Positions 4,431 to 59,645 of a DNA stretch of 60,302 bases are shown piece after piece. The notes beneath the pieces are model-generated. The model saw only the letters and a program-made list of their open reading frames with translations, searched no databases and was not told where the DNA came from. This DNA comes from Candidatus Woesearchaeota archaeon (GTDB taxonomy: Archaea; Nanobdellota; Nanobdellia; Woesearchaeales; ARS49). Position numbers and translations under genes: made by a program. Within the stretch, counting starts at the first letter, position 1. Each line of letters opens with the position of its first letter. Where the stretch lies: the NCBI GenBank assembly GCA_016203305.1, contig JACQMY010000027.1, positions 1-60,302 on the forward strand, in the 5' to 3' direction.

Positions 4431-5321
4431 TTACAAATTAACCCGCATAAAATCATACGCGCTAAACACGTTGTCAAATGCAGTCCGCGCATCTTCCTCC
4501 AATTCCAATGTATTCTTGTATCTTGCGCTGAAATGCGTTAGTATCAATTTTTTTACGCTTGCTTGGCTTGCTATTTGTGCTGCTTGTAGTGCTGTTAGGT
4601 GTCCGTGTTCTTCTGCTTTGTCTTGCAATTTGCTGGTGTAAGTGCTGTCAATGATTAACAGGTCTGCATTGGCTGCAAGCATGCCGCAATTTTGGTTTGG
4701 CATGGTGTCGGTTATAAACACTACTTTTTTACCATTGACTATTTTGGTTGTCTCCTCTGGTGTTACTTTTTTGCCTTTCCACGTTATTGTTTCTCCTCGT
4801 TGTAATTGTCCTAATAGCGGTCCTTCGGGTATTCCTAGTTTTTTTACGTGCTCGACATTTATTCTTCTTCTGTCTTTCTCGACAAATGCATATCCTACGC
4901 ATGGCACTGGGTGTTTCATTGGCATGCTTTCCAGTCTGTAGTCTTCGTTTTCGTAGAATGTTCCTTCGTGTACTTCTGTTATGTGGATGTTGAATTTTGT
5001 TTCGAATTCTATTCCTCCGAATAGTTGTTGGAATGCTTTTTTGCTTCCTCTTGGTCCGTAGATGTCCACTGCGTGGCTTAGTTCTAGGCTTGCTATTGTT
5101 AGCAGCAGTCCCGGCAGTCCCAGAATATGGTCTCCGTGCCAGTGGCTGACTAGTATTTTGTTGACTTTTGCCAGGTTTAGGCCTGCTATTCTCATTTGTC
5201 TTTGTGTTCCTTCTGCGCAATCAAACAGCAGTCCTTCTCCTTTGTATTCTAAATACATGGCGCTTGGGTTTCTTTCTTTTGTTGGCATCATGCAGCTTGT
5301 TCCTAAAAACGTTAGTTCCAT
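4431..5321 (-). CDS. rnz: ribonuclease Z (tRNA 3' endonuclease, metallo-beta-lactamase)
   Basis: MELTFLGTS..., HWHGDH motif, length 296 aa. Confidence 0.9.
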   Translation of the reverse strand: MELTFLGTSCMMPTKERNPSAMYLEYKGEGLLFDCAEGTQRQMRIAGLNLAKVNKILVSHWHGDHILGLPGLLLTIASLELSHAVDIYGPRGSKKAFQQLFGGIEFETKFNIHITEVHEGTFYENEDYRLESMPMKHPVPCVGYAFVEKDRRRINVEHVKKLGIPEGPLLGQLQRGETITWKGKKVTPEETTKIVNGKKVVFITDTMPNQNCGMLAANADLLIIDSTYTSKLQDKAEEHGHLTALQAAQIASQASVKKLILTHFSARYKNTLELEEDARTAFDNVFSAYDFMRVNL

Positions 5322-11344: not shown

Positions 11345-11743
11345 ATGGTTGAGATCAATTATCCTGCGGTCGAGCACATCATTGAGTTTAATCACTTGGC
11401 TCTTGCGCTTGTTAAGGTAAAGAAGGCTGACAAGCCAGTGGTATTGAGCAAACCAAAGCTTCATGAGATTGTTGAGGAATGTGAGAAAGCGCAAGGGGAG
11501 GTTTATGATAAGGCAGTGGTTCTTTTGACCGGCATTATCAAGAAACACCCTTTTGCAAGCGGAAATCGTAGAACTGCTTTCCTTGTAATGGTAGATTTCT
11601 TGTTGGATAACAACGCTGCATGCGCTCTCAAAGACGACCCCGAAAACGCTCGCGTCTTGCCGGGGATACGTGAAGGCTTTTATACTAGTGAAGAAATCAA
11701 GGAGTGGATTAAACATGGCAAAATACACTCATTCAAAAGATAA
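11345..11743 (+). CDS. doc: Doc/Fic-family toxin (death-on-curing type)
   Basis: HPFASGNRRTAF matches the Doc variant of the Fic motif (HxFx[DN][AG]N[KR]R). Confidence 0.8.
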   Translation: MVEINYPAVEHIIEFNHLALALVKVKKADKPVVLSKPKLHEIVEECEKAQGEVYDKAVVLLTGIIKKHPFASGNRRTAFLVMVDFLLDNNAACALKDDPENARVLPGIREGFYTSEEIKEWIKHGKIHSFKR

Positions 11744-14972: not shown

Positions 14973-16106
14973 TTACCCAAACATTCTCAAGTAATCCTGT
15001 CCTTCTGTTTTTACTTCTTCGTTGACCTTTGCAATGGCGTTCATAAAGTCTTGTTCTGTTATTTTTGTTCTGTTTTCTCTGATTGCAAAATATCCTGCTT
15101 CTGTTGCTACTGCTTTGATTTCTGCTCCGCTGAATCCTTCCATTTCTTTGATGATTTTGTCTGTGTTTATTTTTGCCAGGGTCATGTTTCGTGTGTGGAT
15201 TTTGTGGATTTCTTTTCTTCCTTCTTCGTTCGGTAGTGGTACGTGTATGAGTCTGTCTAGTCTTCCTGGGCGGGTTATTGCCGGGTCTAGTATGTCTTTT
15301 CTGTTTGTGCATCCGATGATTTTGACATTGCCTAGTGGGTTGAAGCCATCGACTTCTGCTAGTAATTGCATGAATGTTCTTTGTACTTCTCTTTCTCCGC
15401 TTGTTCCTACGTCTATTCTGACTGCTGCTATTGCGTCTACTTCGTCGATGAATATGATGCTTGGTGCTTTTTCGCGTGCGAGTTGGAAGATTTCTTTGAC
15501 TAGTTTTGCTCCTTCTCCTATGAACTTTTGCACTAGTTCGCTGCCTACTACTTCTATGAATGTGCTTTTGGTGCTTGCCGCTACTGCTTTTGCTAGTAGG
15601 GTTTTTCCTGTTCCTGGTGGTCCATAGAGTAGGATGCCTTTTGGTGGTTCTATTCCTATTTTTTTGAATAGTTCTGGTTTCATTAATGGCAGTTCTATGA
15701 CCTCTTTTATTTCGCGTTCTTGTGCCTGTAGTCCGCCGACGTTTTGCCACGTTAGTGTTGGCTTGTCTATGATTACGAATTTGTCCGCGTCAAATTTGCG
15801 TACTTGGTCTACTTTTCTGATGATTGTGAGGTTTTTTTGTTCTGCTAGAACTGAGTCTCCTGGTGATATTTTTCCTAGTCCTCCTGCTGAGTCTACTAGG
15901 AATTCGTTTCCGTTTGGTAGTCTGATGAGTACTTTGTCGTCTAATAGATCGCGGACTTCGCATAGTATTAGTGGTGTTCGTTTGAACTTTTCTAGCTCGC
16001 GTTCTAGGTTTGTTACGCTTTCTCGTAGGAACTTGTTTTCTTCTTCCACGCCTCCTATGCTGGTTTGATAGCCGAACGTGATGCCGTTGGTTTTATCATT
16101 ACTCAT
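14973..16106 (-). CDS. pan: proteasome-activating nucleotidase (AAA+ Rpt-like)
   Basis: N-terminal coiled coil, OB region, Walker A GILLYGPPGTGKT, Walker B IIFIDEVDA. Confidence 0.93.
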   Translation of the reverse strand: MSNDKTNGITFGYQTSIGGVEEENKFLRESVTNLERELEKFKRTPLILCEVRDLLDDKVLIRLPNGNEFLVDSAGGLGKISPGDSVLAEQKNLTIIRKVDQVRKFDADKFVIIDKPTLTWQNVGGLQAQEREIKEVIELPLMKPELFKKIGIEPPKGILLYGPPGTGKTLLAKAVAASTKSTFIEVVGSELVQKFIGEGAKLVKEIFQLAREKAPSIIFIDEVDAIAAVRIDVGTSGEREVQRTFMQLLAEVDGFNPLGNVKIIGCTNRKDILDPAITRPGRLDRLIHVPLPNEEGRKEIHKIHTRNMTLAKINTDKIIKEMEGFSGAEIKAVATEAGYFAIRENRTKITEQDFMNAIAKVNEEVKTEGQDYLRMFG

Positions 16107-26307: not shown

Positions 26308-26464
26308 CAACCTACAAACTACCTTCGTCCTTCTTCCTTCCGCCTTCGTCCTAATACCTACAACCTTCCTCCTTCACCCTTCGTCCTAATACCTTCTCCC
26401 TTCATCCTACAACCTAATACCTTCAAACTACACACTACTAACTACTAACTACAAACAACTAACC
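26308..26464 (+). repeat. heptad array (20 units in perfect register from 26322)
   Basis: ccttcgt|ccttctt|ccttccg|ccttcgt|cctaata|cctacaa|ccttcct|ccttcac|ccttcgt|cctaata|ccttctc|ccttcat|cctacaa|cctaata|ccttcaa|actacac|actacta|actacta|actacaa|acaacta. Confidence 0.92.
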
Positions 26465-31298: not shown

Positions 31299-32105
31299 TT
31301 ATAAAGGTTGCGGCCTCGGGGGTCGAGGGGGACGGGGGTTAAGTCCCCCTCGCGCGTAATCTCTGCTGTTTGCAAGGTTTTCTGGAGCGTGGCCAACGAA
31401 TGTTCGAATGTCGCATTGTTTGGCCTGTTTTCTCAACTGTTCAACTTCTTCCGTTCTTAGTTTTCTCCAGGTTCCTTTGGCTAGCGTGCTTAGTGCTAGG
31501 CTTGCTATTTTTGTTCTTACTAGCCTGTTTACGTGGTATCCTAGTGATAGGAACAGTTCTCTTACTATGTGTTTTCTTCCTTCGTGTATTGTTATTGTTG
31601 CGCTTTTTCCGCTTGTTGTTATGTTGTGTATTGTTACTGCCTTGCCGTCTATTGGCACTCCTTCTGTGATTTTTTCTATGTCTTTTATTGTGAGTGGCTT
31701 GTCGAGTGTTGCTCTGTATTCTTTGTGTATGTTGTATCTTGGGTGTGTTAGTTGGTTTGCAAAGTTTCCGTCGTTTGTGAACAGCAATAGTCCTTCTGTG
31801 TTTTTGTCTAGTCTTCCTATTGGGTAGATTTTTGGTTTTCTGGGCACTAGTTGCATTACGGTTTTCATGTCATGTGTTTCGTGTGTTGTTGTTACGTATC
31901 CTGTTGGCTTGTTGAGCATGATGTATGTTTTTTCTTCTAGTGCAATTGGTTTTCCGTCGATTAGTATCTTGTCTGTTTGTTCTGCGTTGTCTCCTAGTTT
32001 TACGATTTTTCCGTTTACTGTTACTCTTCCTTCTTTGATTAACTCTTCTGCTTTTCTTCGTGATGCTATTCCTGCTGCTGACATTATTTTTTGTATTCGT
32101 TCCAT
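31299..32105 (-). CDS. RsuA/RluB-family pseudouridine synthase with S4 domain
   Basis: S4: IASRRKAEELIKEGRVTVNG. Catalytic GRLDKNTEGLLLFTNDG. Pro/Arg-rich tail. A 9-bp GC hairpin (31325-31351) lies within the tail-coding region. Confidence 0.85.
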   Translation of the reverse strand: MERIQKIMSAAGIASRRKAEELIKEGRVTVNGKIVKLGDNAEQTDKILIDGKPIALEEKTYIMLNKPTGYVTTTHETHDMKTVMQLVPRKPKIYPIGRLDKNTEGLLLFTNDGNFANQLTHPRYNIHKEYRATLDKPLTIKDIEKITEGVPIDGKAVTIHNITTSGKSATITIHEGRKHIVRELFLSLGYHVNRLVRTKIASLALSTLAKGTWRKLRTEEVEQLRKQAKQCDIRTFVGHAPENLANSRDYARGGLNPRPPRPPRPQPL

Positions 32106-45326: not shown

Positions 45327-45425
45327 CAGGTGTAAGGGTGAAGAACGCACTATTCTTCCTTCACCCTTCGTCCTAACACCTACGTCCTTCCGCCTTCATC
45401 CTACAACCCTACACACTACAAACTA
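45327..45425 (+). repeat. heptad array with inverted arm (hairpin after the operon end)
   Basis: aagggtgaag ... cttcaccctt forms a 10-bp stem, followed by cgtcctaacacctacgtccttccgccttcatcctacaaccctacacactacaaacta. Confidence 0.85.
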
Positions 45426-46313
45426 GCTGTTTAGTGCCGCTGTTGATGCGCTGAAGTCTGCTATTTTGAGGACGATATGATGTAGGTGGCTGAGTGTTAT
45501 TGGGTCTTCGTTTTTTTCTAGTTCTCGCGTGATTTTGTTTTCCAGTGTTTTGAATTTTTGTGCTAGCGTGCTTAGGTTTTCTAGTTTGAAGTTGTAGTAG
45601 AGTTCGTAGTATTCTCTTAGTAGTTTGTTTGTTTCATTTAACAGCATTAGTGCTTGTGTGTTGGTTTTTTTCTTGTTTAGGTGTTGGCAGAGGTATTTGT
45701 AGTCGTCTGCTATTTTTTCTAAATTCCATATTATGACGTATAGGAAGCTGGTTTTTATCGTGTCTGGGTGTCCTTTTTTGTTTAGTGTTCTTTCGCAGAA
45801 GTTTGTTAGTTGGTTGTTGGTTTTCTCTAGAGTTAGGAGTGCTTGGAGTGGTTTGCTTTCTTTTGCGAGTTCGTGGGTTTGTTCTGCTAGTTGTAGTGTT
45901 ACTATGAATGCTCTTCTTAGGATTGTGTCGAACTGGTCGTCTAGGTCTTGGCTTACTGATCGGATGGTGCAGGTGTTTTTTGTTTTGTGCACGATTGCGA
46001 AGCCGATGAATAGGTCTTTTATGAGTTCTTCTACAATTGTATGTTGTTTGTCGTCTAGGGTTAGTTCTATTTGGTCGTATCCTTTTTTGTGTAAACTGCT
46101 TAGCGTCCAGCGTAGTGCTCTTTCGTCTAATTTTGTCGAATTGATCGAGCTGGTTTTTATTGTTCTTTGTTTGCCCGTTCCCACAACTAGTGTTGGTCCT
46201 TTTTCTGTTACTTCCAGTTCGTCTCCTTTGTTTATTCCGTATTGTTTTATCCAGTGGGTTGGTATGCTGAGTACGTATGTTTTGCCTGCTATTTGTATGA
46301 CTTTGCGTTTCAT
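45423..46313 (-). CDS. AbrB/SpoVT-domain plus PhoU-like regulator
   Basis: N-terminal KVIQIAGKTYVLSIPTHWIKQYGINKGDELEV (AbrB-type swapped hairpin), followed by two helical PhoU-like repeats. Confidence 0.7.
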   Translation of the reverse strand: MKRKVIQIAGKTYVLSIPTHWIKQYGINKGDELEVTEKGPTLVVGTGKQRTIKTSSINSTKLDERALRWTLSSLHKKGYDQIELTLDDKQHTIVEELIKDLFIGFAIVHKTKNTCTIRSVSQDLDDQFDTILRRAFIVTLQLAEQTHELAKESKPLQALLTLEKTNNQLTNFCERTLNKKGHPDTIKTSFLYVIIWNLEKIADDYKYLCQHLNKKKTNTQALMLLNETNKLLREYYELYYNFKLENLSTLAQKFKTLENKITRELEKNEDPITLSHLHHIVLKIADFSASTAALNS

Positions 46314-48851: not shown

Positions 48852-49394
48852 ATGAAAAAGGACGAATTGGTGTTGGACTTGTTTTTCAATGAGCCAACCA
48901 AACACTGGCATTTCGAGGAAATATTGACTGCTGTTAAGATCAGTAGGCCGCAAGCTGCAGGATGGTTGCGAAAATTCGTCAAGGAAGGGCTAGTCAGAAG
49001 AATTAAGCCAAAAGGTAAAATGCCTTATCATGTGGGAAATTATGAAAGTTCCACATATCAGGCAAGGAAGCGGTTGTTTGCGCTGAACAAGCTTGAAAAG
49101 CAGGGTTTTCTTAGCCATTTAACTAGCTTGCCAAAAGCGCAGGCAGTCATAATGTTTGGCAGCATGAGCCGCTGGGACTGGAATAAAGAAAGCGATATAG
49201 ACCTTTTCGTGTACGGCGATCCAGAAGGCTTCGACAAGGGTGCATTTAGAGCGAAATTGGGTCGTGAAATTGAAACATTCGTATGCAAAGATAAGGAAGA
49301 CCTGCAGAGGCTTAAACCCGCGCTCTTACGAAACATATTAGAAGGGTATTTAATCAAGGGAACACTTAATTTCGTGCAGGTTGCGCATGCGTGA
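48852..49394 (+). CDS. nucleotidyltransferase (MNT-type) with N-terminal wHTH
   Basis: GSMSRWDWNKESDIDLFVY (GS-x-n-DxD minimal nucleotidyltransferase motif). Confidence 0.7.
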   Translation: MKKDELVLDLFFNEPTKHWHFEEILTAVKISRPQAAGWLRKFVKEGLVRRIKPKGKMPYHVGNYESSTYQARKRLFALNKLEKQGFLSHLTSLPKAQAVIMFGSMSRWDWNKESDIDLFVYGDPEGFDKGAFRAKLGREIETFVCKDKEDLQRLKPALLRNILEGYLIKGTLNFVQVAHA

Positions 49395-49854
49395 AGACAG
49401 AAGTTTAGCTGGTGTTTTCAAAGGTTGTACTAATGAAGGCTCATTCAGCCCTCTTGCAAAAATTGATACAGACCAAGTCCGTGCAATGTTCGATGTTGCC
49501 TTAGCGGACTTTGGCACGGTCAAAGAGTGGAGCAAGAAAGCGGCAAGAGAGAGCGGACAGTGGAATGCAATCTACAAATTGGCCTATGACGTTCTTCACA
49601 CGCTTTCTGAGGCATTCCTTGTGTTTGATAAGATAAAAGCAAGAACGCACGAATGCGTATTTGCCTATCTCTGTGAAAAACATCCTGAATTTGAATTCGA
49701 TTGGAATTTTTTTGAGAAAGTCAGAACGGTAAGAAATCGCAGTATTTACTATGGCGAACCTGCGTCATATGCGCATTGGAAAGAAATAGACTTACAAATC
49801 AATCTCTACATTAAAACTTTGGAAAAAGCGGTTGAAACAAGGCAAAAAGTTTAA
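49387..49854 (+). CDS. HEPN-like helical protein paired with the nucleotidyltransferase
   Basis: Overlaps the MNT gene by 8 nt. All-helical, about 155 aa, with an RNRSIYYG segment near the C-terminal third. A canonical Rx4-6H motif is not evident. Confidence 0.45.
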   Translation: MREDRSLAGVFKGCTNEGSFSPLAKIDTDQVRAMFDVALADFGTVKEWSKKAARESGQWNAIYKLAYDVLHTLSEAFLVFDKIKARTHECVFAYLCEKHPEFEFDWNFFEKVRTVRNRSIYYGEPASYAHWKEIDLQINLYIKTLEKAVETRQKV

Positions 49855-56462: not shown

Positions 56463-56545
56463 TCTTCTTCCTACAACCTTCATCCTTCCGCCTTCGTCCT
56501 AATACCTACTTCCTTCCGCCTTCATCCTAATTCCTACCACCTAAA
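56463..56545 (+). repeat. heptad array
   Basis: ttcttcttcctacaaccttcatccttccgccttcgtcctaatacctacttccttccgccttcatcctaattcctaccacctaa. Confidence 0.88.
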
Positions 56546-56587: not shown

Positions 56588-57559
56588 ATGATTCGGATGC
56601 CTTTGCCTGATATGTTGGCGAGATTGAAGGAGAAGTCTGGTCTTTCCGAGCAGGATATTCTTGCGAAGATTGATGCGAAGTGTGCTTCTTTGTCTGGTTT
56701 GATTTCTAAGGAGGGTGCTGCGCATATTATTTCGAATGAGCTTGGTGTTAAGTTGTTGGAGAGTTCTGGTAAGATTCGTGACTTGTTGCCTGGCATGCGT
56801 AATGTTGAAATTCTTGGTCGGGTTACTCAGGTTTTTGATGTTAGGGAGTTTCAGCGTGCTGATGGTTCTGGTGGTAAGGTTGGTAGTTTCCTTGTTGGTG
56901 ATGATTCTGGTATTGTGCGGATTGTTTGTTGGGGTACTCAGGCTGAGGTTCTTCGCCAGCTTTCTGCTGGTATGCCTTTGAAGATTTCTGGTGGTTTGGT
57001 TAGGGAGAACCAGCGGGGGTATAAGGAGGTGCATTTGAACGAGGCTTCTCGTGTTAACTTGTCTCCTCAGGAGCCGGTTCCTGAGGTTGGTAAGGTTCAA
57101 AGGAAGACTTTGCGTGAGCTTCAGGAGTCTGATGATCAGGTTGAGATCATGGGCACTGTTGTGCAGGTATTTGATCCTAAGTTTTTCGAGGTTTGTCCTC
57201 AGTGTAATACGAGGGTTAAGGAGGTTGAGGGTCATTGGTCTTGCGGTGAGCACGGCACGGTTGTTCCTGACTATAGTTATTTGGTGAATGTTTTCCTTGA
57301 TGATGGTACTGAGAACTTGCGTGTTGTTTTGTTTAGAAACCAGGCTGAGAAGTTGTTGGATAAGACTAAGGAGCAGATGGTTGCTTATCGTGTTGCTCCT
57401 GATTCTTTTGAGCCTTTGAAGACTGAGTTGTTGGGCGAGCAGTTTAAGTTTGTTGGTCGTGTGAAGAAGAATACTTTTTTTGATCGTTTGGAATTTATTG
57501 CCAACCAGGTTAAGAAGGCAAATGCTGATGAGGAGTTGGCCAAGCTTGATCCGCAGTGA
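56588..57559 (+). CDS. rpa: RPA-like single-stranded DNA-binding protein (OB folds plus Zn ribbon)
   Basis: N-terminal helical domain (LSEQDILAKIDAKCASLSGLISKEGAAHIISNELGV), OB fold, and CPQC...CGEHG zinc ribbon. TATA ttcttataaata at 56546-56557. Confidence 0.8.
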   Translation: MIRMPLPDMLARLKEKSGLSEQDILAKIDAKCASLSGLISKEGAAHIISNELGVKLLESSGKIRDLLPGMRNVEILGRVTQVFDVREFQRADGSGGKVGSFLVGDDSGIVRIVCWGTQAEVLRQLSAGMPLKISGGLVRENQRGYKEVHLNEASRVNLSPQEPVPEVGKVQRKTLRELQESDDQVEIMGTVVQVFDPKFFEVCPQCNTRVKEVEGHWSCGEHGTVVPDYSYLVNVFLDDGTENLRVVLFRNQAEKLLDKTKEQMVAYRVAPDSFEPLKTELLGEQFKFVGRVKKNTFFDRLEFIANQVKKANADEELAKLDPQ

Positions 57560-57601
57560 TTGCGAAAGGCTTTTAAATGTCATTGACTAGTGGTCACTGT
57601 C

Positions 57602-57985
57602 ATGAATCAGGACGTCTTTAATGAGTTGATTGATACGCTTGGTGCAGTTGTTGGCACGTTTCGTTCAGTGGAAACGTTTCCAAAACAAACGGATATTCTT
57701 CTTGCTATGGTTTTGCAGGTTGTTGGGCGTTTGAAAGTGGAAGTGCCAAATCCTTCTCAAGAAGAGCTTGATGCAATTATAGAGTTGCAAACAGGGTTGG
57801 TTGAATTTAAGGATAATGTGTCAAAGTATGGAAGGAATCTGGTGAAAGCAAGAGCCGATTTTAAAGAAAATTTAAGGGGGCTTCTCAAAGAGCTTGATGG
57901 TATCGCTGTTGCCAATCCACAGTATGGTTTGCGGTTGAGAAGTCTGCAAGGGTATAGGCTGCTCAGGAAGCTGGTGGGCGTATGA
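57602..57985 (+). CDS. hypothetical helical protein (cassette gene 1)
   Basis: TATA ggcttttaaatg at 57569-57580, about 25 nt upstream of ATG 57602. Composition lacks the core T/G excess. No motif recognised. Confidence 0.6.
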   Translation: MNQDVFNELIDTLGAVVGTFRSVETFPKQTDILLAMVLQVVGRLKVEVPNPSQEELDAIIELQTGLVEFKDNVSKYGRNLVKARADFKENLRGLLKELDGIAVANPQYGLRLRSLQGYRLLRKLVGV

Positions 57986-58671
57986 ATCATTTGCAAGCTG
58001 GTTCGAAGAGGCTGGCAGATATTCTTGCCGAGTGTGATGAGTGGTATCATTTTGATGTCTCCACCGCGTCCCGGAGCGTGAGAATTCGATTAATGCAGGA
58101 TGATGAAATTCTTTTTGATGGTTATGAGTTAAAGAAAGCGAAATGTGCGCGAATAGCATATGATGCTTCTCTTCTATTTGGTTCAGGGCGATATAATTTC
58201 AATGGAACTTCGGTAACTGCAGAGAGTGTCAGCAAGTTTTGTCTTGGGCTTGAGGATTGGTTGGAACAGAGGGAACGGGGAAATCCAGTGAGTAACGACC
58301 TCCGTGATGCAAACTCGCTTCTTGATAGGATTGCGAAGGATGCGGGAATTCCTCAATATATGGTTGCGAGCTATTTGCGTTTAAGTGCGCAGTTTCCAAT
58401 TCCTGCTTTTGAGGATTTAGGCTCGCATATTCGTGCTGGAAAAATGAATGGGCTAAAAACAAATCTTGCATTTTTTAAAGATGAACTCGAGCGGGGGACG
58501 GATGTCCGAATTTTAAACGTTGAGCAGCTTCATCCTTTTGTTGTCAAAGACGGCAATATCGTTGCCTGCGTTTTTGATCCGAAAATGAGGGTGTATCAAA
58601 CTACAAGCCCGAGTGCATACGATTTTCGCAATGTACTGCGACAGCATTCTGCCGATCATCGTTATCTATAA
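57982..58671 (+). CDS. hypothetical protein (cassette gene 2)
   Basis: ATGA overlap with cassette gene 1. 229 aa, no motif recognised. Confidence 0.6.
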   Translation: MNHLQAGSKRLADILAECDEWYHFDVSTASRSVRIRLMQDDEILFDGYELKKAKCARIAYDASLLFGSGRYNFNGTSVTAESVSKFCLGLEDWLEQRERGNPVSNDLRDANSLLDRIAKDAGIPQYMVASYLRLSAQFPIPAFEDLGSHIRAGKMNGLKTNLAFFKDELERGTDVRILNVEQLHPFVVKDGNIVACVFDPKMRVYQTTSPSAYDFRNVLRQHSADHRYL

Positions 58672-58746
58672 GCTTATTGCCTTGGCACAGTATGATCTTT
58701 TCAAATCACTTCATAATCATATTTGGTGGGTGGCAACGTGGAGACC

Positions 58747-58835
58747 ACTTTTTTTGACCGTTTGGAATTCATTGCTAACCAGGTGAAAAAGGCTAATCCT
58801 GAGGAGGAGTTGGCTAAGTTGAATCCGCAGCAATA
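58747..58835 (+). pseudogene. orphan duplicate of the rpa 3' end
   Basis: 58747-58830 aligns to 57473-57556 without gaps (12 mismatches in 84 nt by hand count). It encodes TFFDRLEFIANQVKKANPEEELAKLNPQQ*, compared with TFFDRLEFIANQVKKANADEELAKLDPQ* at the end of rpa. Confidence 0.8.
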
Positions 58836-58845
58836 GTTGCCAGCC

Positions 58846-58952
58846 GTCTTCATCCTTCCGCCTTCGTCCTAATGCCAAATGCCCAACGCCCTAATACCTT
58901 CGTCCTTCCGCCTTCATCCGCCTACAACCTAATACCCAACAGCCAAAAGCTA
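58846..58952 (+). repeat. heptad array
   Basis: gtcttcatccttccgccttcgtcctaatgccaaatgcccaacgccctaataccttcgtccttccgccttcatccgcctacaacctaatacccaacagccaaaagc. Confidence 0.88.
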
Positions 58953-58994
58953 TTATACGCGTTCGTAGTTCTATCGATCAAAAGGGTGATTCTC

Positions 58995-59459
58995 ATGATG
59001 GGCAGAACTCATATGGCAATAGGATTTCTAGTAGGCTTGTTAGTTTTGCCTTTTGTTCAGCCGGATAACAGTCTGTTGTTCGTATTTTTAGTAACGTTTG
59101 CAAGCTTGTGGCCGGATGTCGATCATGAGAACAGTAAGATCAATCGGTTGCTTCCGATAACGCGTTGGATTCCGCGCGTGTTTGTGCATCGTGGTTTTTT
59201 TCATAGCGTTTTTCCAGCATTAATATTATATGGTGTGTTTTGGTATTTTGGCTTGGCGTGGATTGGTCTTCCGCTTGCGCTTGGCTACTTGACCCATTTA
59301 GCTTCTGATTGTCTTACGCGGCTTGGTTGTAATTTGTTGCACCCGGTTAGCACGTTTCGCATTCAGGGTTTTGTCTGGACTGATGGCTTGGTTGAGTTTG
59401 CGTTGTTTGGTGTGGTTGTAGTTCTTGATGTCGTTGTTGGCGTTATGCGTTTCTTTTGA
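58995..59459 (+). CDS. DUF457/YdjM-like membrane-bound metal-dependent hydrolase
   Basis: MMGRTHMAIGFLVG...WPDVDHENSKI...HRGFFHS...THLASD. SD aagggtgat precedes ATG 58995. The ORF-track start at 58872 reads through the array. Confidence 0.7.
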   Translation: MMGRTHMAIGFLVGLLVLPFVQPDNSLLFVFLVTFASLWPDVDHENSKINRLLPITRWIPRVFVHRGFFHSVFPALILYGVFWYFGLAWIGLPLALGYLTHLASDCLTRLGCNLLHPVSTFRIQGFVWTDGLVEFALFGVVVVLDVVVGVMRFF

Positions 59460-59465
59460 CATTCG

Positions 59466-59645
59466 TCTACAAACTGCGGGCTAATGGCCACTGGCCAACA
59501 TCCTTCGTCCTAATTCCTACAACCTAACGCCTAATACCTACATCCTTCGTCCTAATACCTAATAGCCAAAAGCCTACATCCTTCGTCCTAATACCTTCTT
59601 CCGCCTTCATTCTTCGTCCCAATCCCCACTTCCCACTGGACACTA
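59466..59645 (+). repeat. heptad array (about 25 units)
   Basis: ...catccttcgtcctaattcctacaacctaacgcctaatacctacatccttcgtcctaatacctaatagccaaaagcctacatccttcgtcctaataccttcttccgccttcattcttcgtcccaatccccacttccc. Confidence 0.88.

Follow-up and report, generated by a model that had tools for sequence, protein, structure and literature searches.

A duplicated rpa gene end flanks a rare two-gene cassette in a Candidatus Woesearchaeota genome

The DNA analysed here (the window; 60,302 nt, positions 1-60,302 of contig JACQMY010000027.1, assembly GCA_016203305.1) comes from a Candidatus Woesearchaeota archaeon, a member of DPANN. In this window the 3' end of rpa, which codes for a replication protein A (RPA)-like single-strand DNA-binding protein, is present twice, and the two copies bracket a promoter followed by two small genes, which we call the A-B cassette. 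We lean, tentatively, towards reading the repeat as the scar of recombination between a cassette-bearing and a cassette-free haplotype, anchored in rpa and illegitimately joined on the other side, with one gene end pushed downstream. DPANN archaea have tiny genomes, and their route of gene gain is poorly known. The locus would then record, at the level of sequence, how two close relatives exchanged DNA within a housekeeping gene region. As it stands, it looks like a tidy, unsurprising recombination scar of a known type, attached to a new protein pair. If duplication of gene ends (of rpa here, of a signal recognition particle (SRP) RNA gene elsewhere) proved common for this cassette, it would point to a way of moving cassettes that has so far gone unrecognised in archaea.

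The two copies of the rpa 3' end

The rpa gene (56597-57559, + strand, 320 aa) was identified by two Pfam matches above cut-offs, to the tRNA_anti-codon OB fold (PF01336, 1.4e-12) and to Rep_fac-A_C (PF08646, 7.6e-12), and by orthologues with 74-82% identity and conserved synteny in metagenome-assembled genomes of Woesearchaeota/Nanoarchaeota. A repeat search returned a gap-free direct repeat of 89 nt with two copies (57468-57556 and 58742-58830, 84% identity). Over the last 84 coding nt (57473-57556 vs 58747-58830) we counted 12 mismatches (86% identity), precisely the figures given in a first-pass annotation of the sequence, and the repeat terminates exactly at the final rpa codon. Copy 1 (57468-57556, +) is the working 3' end of rpa, comprising its last 28 codons and at most 5 nt upstream of them. 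Copy 2 (58742-58836, +) is an orphaned rpa 3' end, with 28 codons, an extra Gln codon and a TAG stop and no gene body upstream. The protein tails end in ANADEELAKLDPQ for copy 1 and ANPEEELAKLNPQQ for copy 2, each followed by the stop codon.

That most of the differences are synonymous, as already remarked in the first-pass annotation, is borne out by the counts: 9 of the 12 lie at third codon positions and 8 of the 11 changed codons are synonymous. The Nei-Gojobori method gives 8 synonymous and 4 non-synonymous differences (Sd and Nd), corresponding to proportions pS of 0.50 and pN of 0.06 and to a pN/pS of 0.12. Twelve random substitutions would leave three amino-acid changes or fewer with a probability of 9e-5. 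Neutral decay of copy 2 after an in situ duplication predicts 60-75% non-synonymous differences (P between 4e-4 and 0.015), and the synonymous bias thus disfavours both a target-site duplication and a neutrally decaying in situ duplicate. Because the differences are almost wholly synonymous, the tails are two rpa alleles that diverged while coding, in two lineages. It follows that one gene end came from other DNA and that the other end was orphaned. Any model must bring two rpa alleles together.

The contexts of the copies differ. The cassette promoter starts 3 nt past the stop codon of copy 1. Past that of copy 2 there is, after 11 nt, a (CCTNNNN)n heptamer array (58846-58950, +), which trails it as such arrays trail other native gene ends. 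The same type of array is found 3' of the gene upstream of rpa (56470-56542) and 3' of ydjM, the gene downstream of copy 2 (59488-59596), and at three gene ends that we inspected the array starts about 10-40 nt past the stop codon. Among approximately 60 loci of relatives there was a single, chance-level array match. The two tails resemble each other (52/60) more than either resembles the tail of any relative (50/60 at most), and the proportion of G and T at their third codon positions (G3+T3) is about 0.8 (0.80 for copy 2), as in core genes; for the whole rpa gene it is 0.91, evenly along its length. As the tails are mutually closest and core-like in G3+T3, both parents were close relatives within this array-bearing, G+T-biased lineage.

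Chance and assembly artefact were rejected as origins of the repeat. The 35-nt core pattern occurs at these two sites only in the window, vs none expected in shuffled sequences, and Logan contigs from three independent metagenome assemblies run across the structure (one contig spans 56533-58854, another 57527-59531), which shows that it was not created by assembly. The first-pass annotation had also envisaged that copy 2 might belong to a longer, degenerate rpa paralogue. We reject this possibility: no rpa-like sequence was found upstream of copy 2, three in-frame stops precede it, identity falls to about 50% within 24 nt on its 5' side, and gene B is unrelated to RPA. The longest identical blocks within the repeat measure 11 nt; there are three of them, one at the left edge. 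Such a length would suffice for some recombinases but is not diagnostic of a crossover core.

The A-B cassette and its genomic contexts

The TATA box and the two overlapping open reading frames (ORFs) described between the copies in the first-pass annotation were recovered, the ORFs with the same coordinates. The cassette promoter (57563-57585, +) consists of a B recognition element (BRE) and a TATA box, with TTTTAAAT at 57571-57578, and stops approximately 17 nt short of the ATG start codon of A. Gene A (57602-57985, +, 127 aa) and gene B (57982-58671, +, 229 aa) overlap by 4 nt (ATGA), and independent gene calls on public contigs agree with both ORFs. The two proteins are uncharacterised, and the initial impression that they carry no recognisable motif holds for Pfam, PHROGs, PADLOC and PDB sequence profiles, none of which gave a match. 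Neither Pfam nor PADLOC matched any of the nine B or seven A family members, and no toxin or antitoxin domain was found among them. No inverted repeat is present within or beside the cassette, and no tRNA, Rfam RNA or transposase gene was found near it. Thus, unlike an integron gene cassette, it has no attC-type inverted repeat, and the scanned parts of the window revealed no integrase.

In a k-mer-seeded search of 5.8 billion proteins, A and B matched only themselves. An exhaustive HMMER scan of 1.84 billion cluster representatives identified eight true homologues of B, with 24-38% identity. A match to the CUB-repeat protein P0011 proved spurious. Gene A has seven homologues (26-54% identity), always immediately 5' of a B gene and usually with the ATGA overlap. 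An A-like gene of about 127 codons, or what remains of one, precedes each B homologue with a readable context and has a TATA box of its own, and every A gene has TTTTAAA or a similar TATA-like box at the same distance. No conserved 3' end of the cassette was found. The hosts, where identifiable, are Woesearchaeota. A-B is a discrete, conserved and rare archaeal two-gene cassette with its own promoter.

AlphaFold2 modelling of B from its single sequence was uninformative (predicted local distance difference test score, pLDDT, of 40). With an alignment of nine sequences, it yielded a confident model (pLDDT 86.8, predicted template modelling score 0.80) with a predicted N-terminal beta-meander and a helical middle part. 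Structure prediction had been proposed in the first-pass annotation. Foldseek searches of PDB and BFVD with the model returned no significant neighbour (nothing better than E 0.085 or TM 0.21). An RNase H-like fold recurred among the weak, non-significant Foldseek matches; we did not retain it, as B has no conserved acidic residues. Based on these models and searches, A and B are a new lineage-restricted protein pair, with a confident predicted structure for B that has no known neighbour.

We compared about 50 rpa loci of relatives, in which the conserved gene order is the upstream gene, rpa, ydjM and a further gene that we labelled dn2. The ydjM gene (58995-59459, +; Pfam YdjM, 3e-24) codes for a protein of a membrane-bound metal-dependent hydrolase family and is found downstream of rpa in almost every relative. 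At many of the loci it starts 5-53 nt after rpa, and these represent empty sites. In others, 0.5-2.7 kb of small genes lie between rpa and ydjM, coding for SET-domain, HIT-like, NUDIX and GNAT proteins and for small unknown ORFs. The rpa-ydjM junction is a hot spot of gene content in Woesearchaeota. As ydjM directly follows rpa in many relatives, the cassette is an insertion relative to most of them. The comparison with an empty site suggested at the outset yielded no near-identical strain: searches of genome and metagenome collections and of the sample contigs found no closer relative or empty-site strain, the closest RPA proteins being 79-82% identical. A second rpa tail was found at none of the approximately 50 loci.

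The RPA protein of the relative labelled L030/L031/L032 is 76% identical to that of the window and falls into the same neighbour-joining subclade. The gene order at L030 is rpa, a HIT-like gene, a promoter with A' (54%), B' (35%), a second promoter-like box, a remnant of A, B'' (31%), ydjM, dn2 and RadA. The A promoter of L030 is nearly identical to that of the window (CGAAAGSCTTTTAAATGTCATT), the promoter CGAAAGGCTTTTAAATGTCATTG of the window matching CGAAAGCCTTTTAAATGTCATTC upstream of A'. L030/L031 has no duplicate of the rpa tail. All that is left of an A gene before the intact B'' of L030 (8622-8761) is its final 26 codons, behind a promoter-like box. Similarly, at positions 3252-3470 of L063 gene A is an internally deleted, frameshifted pseudogene and B is intact. 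These degraded copies of A indicate that B can persist without A. Back in the window, B is separated from copy 2 by spacer x (58672-58741, +, 70 nt), which contains no ORF and has no significant similarity to anything. It opens with AAGCTTATT (58672-58680), a 9-mer also present in the BRE/TATA region of ydjM after B'' in L030, and this short match weakly suggests that spacer x may derive from a former B-ydjM intergenic region.

Elsewhere, the cassettes are found in various contexts. At L026/L027 an archaeal SRP RNA gene (RF01857, 127 bits; L026 7282-7559) ends about 20 nt before the start of the cassette. The last 8 nt of this gene and the T-run behind it (GTCCGCCCACTTTTT, 15 nt) are repeated perfectly at the stop codon of the first B gene, B1 (L026 8675-8689). 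A third copy, with 13 of 15 positions identical, lies behind a NUDIX gene and immediately precedes a second A-B cassette (L026 9480-9494), and both displaced SRP RNA ends share an identical 15-nt boundary. The L025 cassette lies beside NUDIX and methyltransferase genes, and that of L033 between transketolase and oxidoreductase genes. No flanking repeats were detected at the L030, L025, L033 and L063 cassettes. At L028 a 15-nt near-palindrome, ATTAACCATAGTTAA, lies on both sides of the cassette (145-159 and 1367-1381, the same in L029). Next to each copy are a gene start and a TATA box that faces outwards. Judging from this layout, it is probably a shared operator of two divergent promoters, the alternative being an insertion footprint, and we did not count it as such a footprint.

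The first-pass annotation had described the cassette as foreign in composition. The values agree in so far as G3+T3 is 0.70 in A and 0.67 in B, vs 0.91 in rpa and 0.83-0.87 in the upstream genes, and in three genomes of differing bias the third-position composition of the cassette is nearer 0.5 than that of upstream core genes. Nevertheless, the conserved neighbours ydjM (0.73) and dn2 (0.66) deviate to a comparable extent. As they do so both in the window and in L030, composition is not decisive for a foreign origin.

Regarding function, A and B resemble accessory or conflict genes in being patchy, multi-copy and often found with a degraded partner. Their own promoter, translational coupling, rarity, patchy multi-copy occurrence and fast divergence, and the loss of A with B kept, lead us to guess that they form a fast-evolving two-component conflict- or immunity-like module whose B component is able to stand alone. 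A role as a toxin-antitoxin system or in defence would likewise be a guess. Like type II toxin-antitoxin systems and small defence pairs, the cassette joins two small genes that overlap by 4 nt (ATGA) under a promoter of their own, occurs patchily, with multiple diverged copies per locus and one partner often degraded, and departs in composition from the upstream core genes, as ydjM and dn2 do too. Unlike such systems, A and B match no toxin, antitoxin or PADLOC model. Furthermore, the larger downstream gene B is intact where A is truncated, the opposite of what is expected if A were the antitoxin and B the toxin, which argues against a simple arrangement of that kind.

Origin of the duplication

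The reading that we prefer starts from two closely related woesearchaeotal haplotypes that would have differed at the variable rpa-ydjM junction. One would have carried the promoter and A-B directly after rpa, and the other rpa, the heptamer array and ydjM. The exchange between them would have run through homologous sequence on one side (in rpa, or else in ydjM) and would have ended on the other side in a non-homologous joint at 58741/58742, some 84-89 nt from the 3' end of the rpa allele that lacked the cassette. The rpa gene would then carry the tail of one allele (copy 1), followed by the cassette and the 70-nt spacer, and the tail of the other allele (copy 2) would remain as a non-coding orphan, still joined to the array and the ydjM gene native to it. 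A dedicated integrase would not be necessary, the pattern being that of homology-facilitated illegitimate recombination, or 3'-end displacement. Which of the tails is the resident one, and the enzymology of the joint, we can only infer.

Recombination between haplotypes would explain the coding-type divergence of the tails, the native array context of copy 2, why no recombinase was found and why the duplication is unique among the approximately 50 loci. It would also account for the L030 haplotype and the analogous remnants in L030 and, possibly but weakly, for the 9-mer resembling the ydjM promoter at the start of spacer x. As expected of a displaced end, copy 2 is an allele of the working gene end, lies 70 nt after B and has kept its frame. 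Module-free loci are common among relatives, and L030/L031, from the same subclade, has A-B between rpa and ydjM, a possible donor arrangement representing a cassette-bearing haplotype of this locus; with RPA identities of 82% at most, these loci are too distant to be the actual parents. Scars are also found around other cassettes, namely the A remnant with B'' in L030 and, in L026, the SRP RNA ends after cassette 1 and after the NUDIX gene.

Displacement of 3' ends by homology-facilitated illegitimate recombination was proposed for Rhs tips, for orphan modules of contact-dependent inhibition (CDI) systems and for effector-immunity arrays of the Vibrio cholerae type VI secretion system (T6SS) (PMC5361080), a paper in which Jackson 2009 and de Vries & Wackernagel 2002 are cited. 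As in those systems, the incoming DNA would have been anchored in a conserved upstream gene and would have installed a new gene end and a downstream module, the old 3' end having been moved downstream as an orphan. The absence of a detected recombinase gene is another shared feature, and the B'' gene of L030 and the B gene of L063 would correspond to the orphan partner genes. In contrast with Rhs, CDI and T6SS loci, the displaced end belongs here to the housekeeping gene rpa and encodes a nearly identical protein rather than a variable toxin tip. The host is moreover a DPANN archaeon, A-B has no known toxin or immunity domains, and the mechanism is deduced from the sequences.

Several observations weigh against this reading. 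Neither parental haplotype turned up in a sister strain, and with the closest RPA proteins only 79-82% identical, the direction of the exchange and the crossover cannot be read. In L030, the only relative with A-B at this locus, a HIT-like gene lies between rpa and A, so that the postulated donor, with A directly after rpa, is unobserved. The identical, sharp 15-nt boundaries of the SRP RNA ends in L026 would fit a defined att core better than random illegitimate joints. Furthermore, both the window and L026 have tight cassette edges, with 3-21 nt in front of the promoter and 0-70 nt behind the stop codon of B, which suggests a discrete mobile unit. Finally, we know of no demonstration of DNA uptake or exchange in these organisms.

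The next reading, a serious rival that we consider less likely, is site-specific integration, the interpretation put forward in the first-pass annotation. The 1.2-kb promoter-A-B segment would be a non-autonomous cassette that carries the end of the target gene as attP and is inserted into the 3' end of rpa by a recombinase acting in trans, whose gene would lie at another place in the genome or on a virus or plasmid. The repeats would correspond to attL and attR, and their left edge (ACTTTTTTTGA) would hold the crossover core. Insertion of elements into gene 3' ends by an integrase is well known from archaeal SSV-type and pNOB8-type elements and from bacterial tRNA/tmRNA islands, and integrase-less, att-flanked derivatives are known as cis-mobilisable elements (CIMEs). 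Direct repeats of a gene 3' end are the classical footprint of such events, and here, as in those elements, the target gene would have been restored by a diverged, element-supplied end. The L026 cassette, with the perfect 15-nt duplicate of the SRP RNA 3' end behind it and the 13/15 copy before the next cassette, is reminiscent of the stacking of elements by tandem accretion. The tight boundaries in both genomes, the 11-nt identity of the leftmost repeat block, the variety of the cassette contexts and the third-position composition nearer 0.5 in three genomes point in the same direction.

Nevertheless, no integrase is encoded in the cassette, as was noted from the start (it holds only A and B, neither with a Pfam, PHROG or PDB match), or in the scanned parts of the window, and no partner element was found. 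The repeat contains no identical core longer than 11 nt, and the cassette is only 1.2 kb long. Unlike in integrase elements and CIMEs, one cassette family is associated here with different targets (rpa, SRP RNA) and with repeats of different length (84-89 vs 15 nt), the rpa site is unused in the approximately 50 relatives, and the L030, L025, L033 and L063 cassettes lack flanking repeats. The searches proposed for mobile forms were negative: the A family and the rpa tail are absent from the viral contigs searched, no episomal copy was found, and no excision or circle joints were present in the Logan contigs of four runs, which drop rare variants. With copies that are 26-54% identical, the cassette does not behave like an actively spreading element. 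Thus, of the proposed integration with a replacement gene end, the insertion relative to most relatives and the supply of one end by other DNA (pN/pS 0.12) stand, and site specificity is not supported. That one relative, L030/L031, carries the same two genes without the duplication also speaks against attachment-site repeats; the perfect SRP RNA duplicate in L026 keeps an att-like reading alive despite L030.

Less probable again, we think, is that A-B represents a kind of DPANN mobile cassette not seen before, which would insert at, or travel with, the extreme 3' ends of conserved genes (rpa here, SRP RNA in L026) and would duplicate the gene end without an integrase in cis, recombination being carried out by B itself, with what would be a new fold, or in trans by a host or viral enzyme. 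In a variant of this idea, captured gene ends would serve as homology anchors, as they do for CDI and Rhs orphan modules, and A-B would be a polymorphic system resembling toxin/immunity systems.

An intragenomic origin is very unlikely. It would involve a tandem duplication of the rpa region, both copies being kept for long and the second then mostly deleted down to its last 28 codons. Coding-type divergence of the tails would also be expected between long-lived paralogues, and the cassette family does include cases of tandem duplication and of partial deletion (L030, L063). However, the in-frame stops, the lack of rpa-like sequence upstream of copy 2 and the dissimilarity of B and RPA speak against it, two rpa genes were found at the locus in none of the approximately 50 relatives, and the scenario requires two precise deletions and a reduced genome that kept a redundant gene for a long time.

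We give even less credit to the idea that copy 2 is selected in its own right, as a small ORF (e.g. of about 32 codons from the GTG at 58739, with the conserved RPA C-terminal helix) or as a cis element: its pN/pS of 0.12, intact frame, natural-looking stop and the TATA-like AAGCTTATT some 60 nt upstream would be in keeping with it, but no relative has a stand-alone tail, and in a neutral simulation 12 differences leave a 28-codon frame intact by chance in about two-thirds of cases (probability of a stop, 0.36).

Strand bias, heptamer arrays and accessory genes

The G+T bias of rpa is shared by the other + strand genes of the window, whose G3+T3 is approximately 0.85-0.92. The - strand genes show an A3+C3 of approximately 0.85, and they are real genes, as exemplified by those for the PAN AAA ATPase (14973-16106), tRNase Z (4431-5321) and a pseudouridine synthase (31299-32105). 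This mirror-image third-position composition on the - strand indicates that the bias tracks the DNA strand and not the direction of transcription. In most relatives the strand asymmetry is far weaker, or opposite in sign.

Approximately 20 intergenic (CCTNNNN)n arrays are distributed over positions 3614-59596 of the window, almost exclusively on the + strand (examples at 26322-26422, 56470-56542, 58854-58913 and 59488-59596). DNA of the window was recovered as Logan contigs in three groundwater metagenome runs, at a depth of about 9-10x. In the metagenome contigs the words of the arrays reach a depth of 100-300x, vs about 10x for unique DNA. The window and the Logan contigs differ in length by 4 nt at 58919/58920.

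Other genes of accessory type are present in the window. They include a nucleotidyltransferase gene (Polbeta/NTP_transf_2) followed by an overlapping unknown ORF (48852-49854 for the pair), a gene with a Fic/DOC domain (11345-11743) and a gene on the - strand (45423-46313) for a 296-aa protein with a MazE/AbrB-type N-terminus. The strand bias is weaker around the nucleotidyltransferase and Fic/DOC genes.

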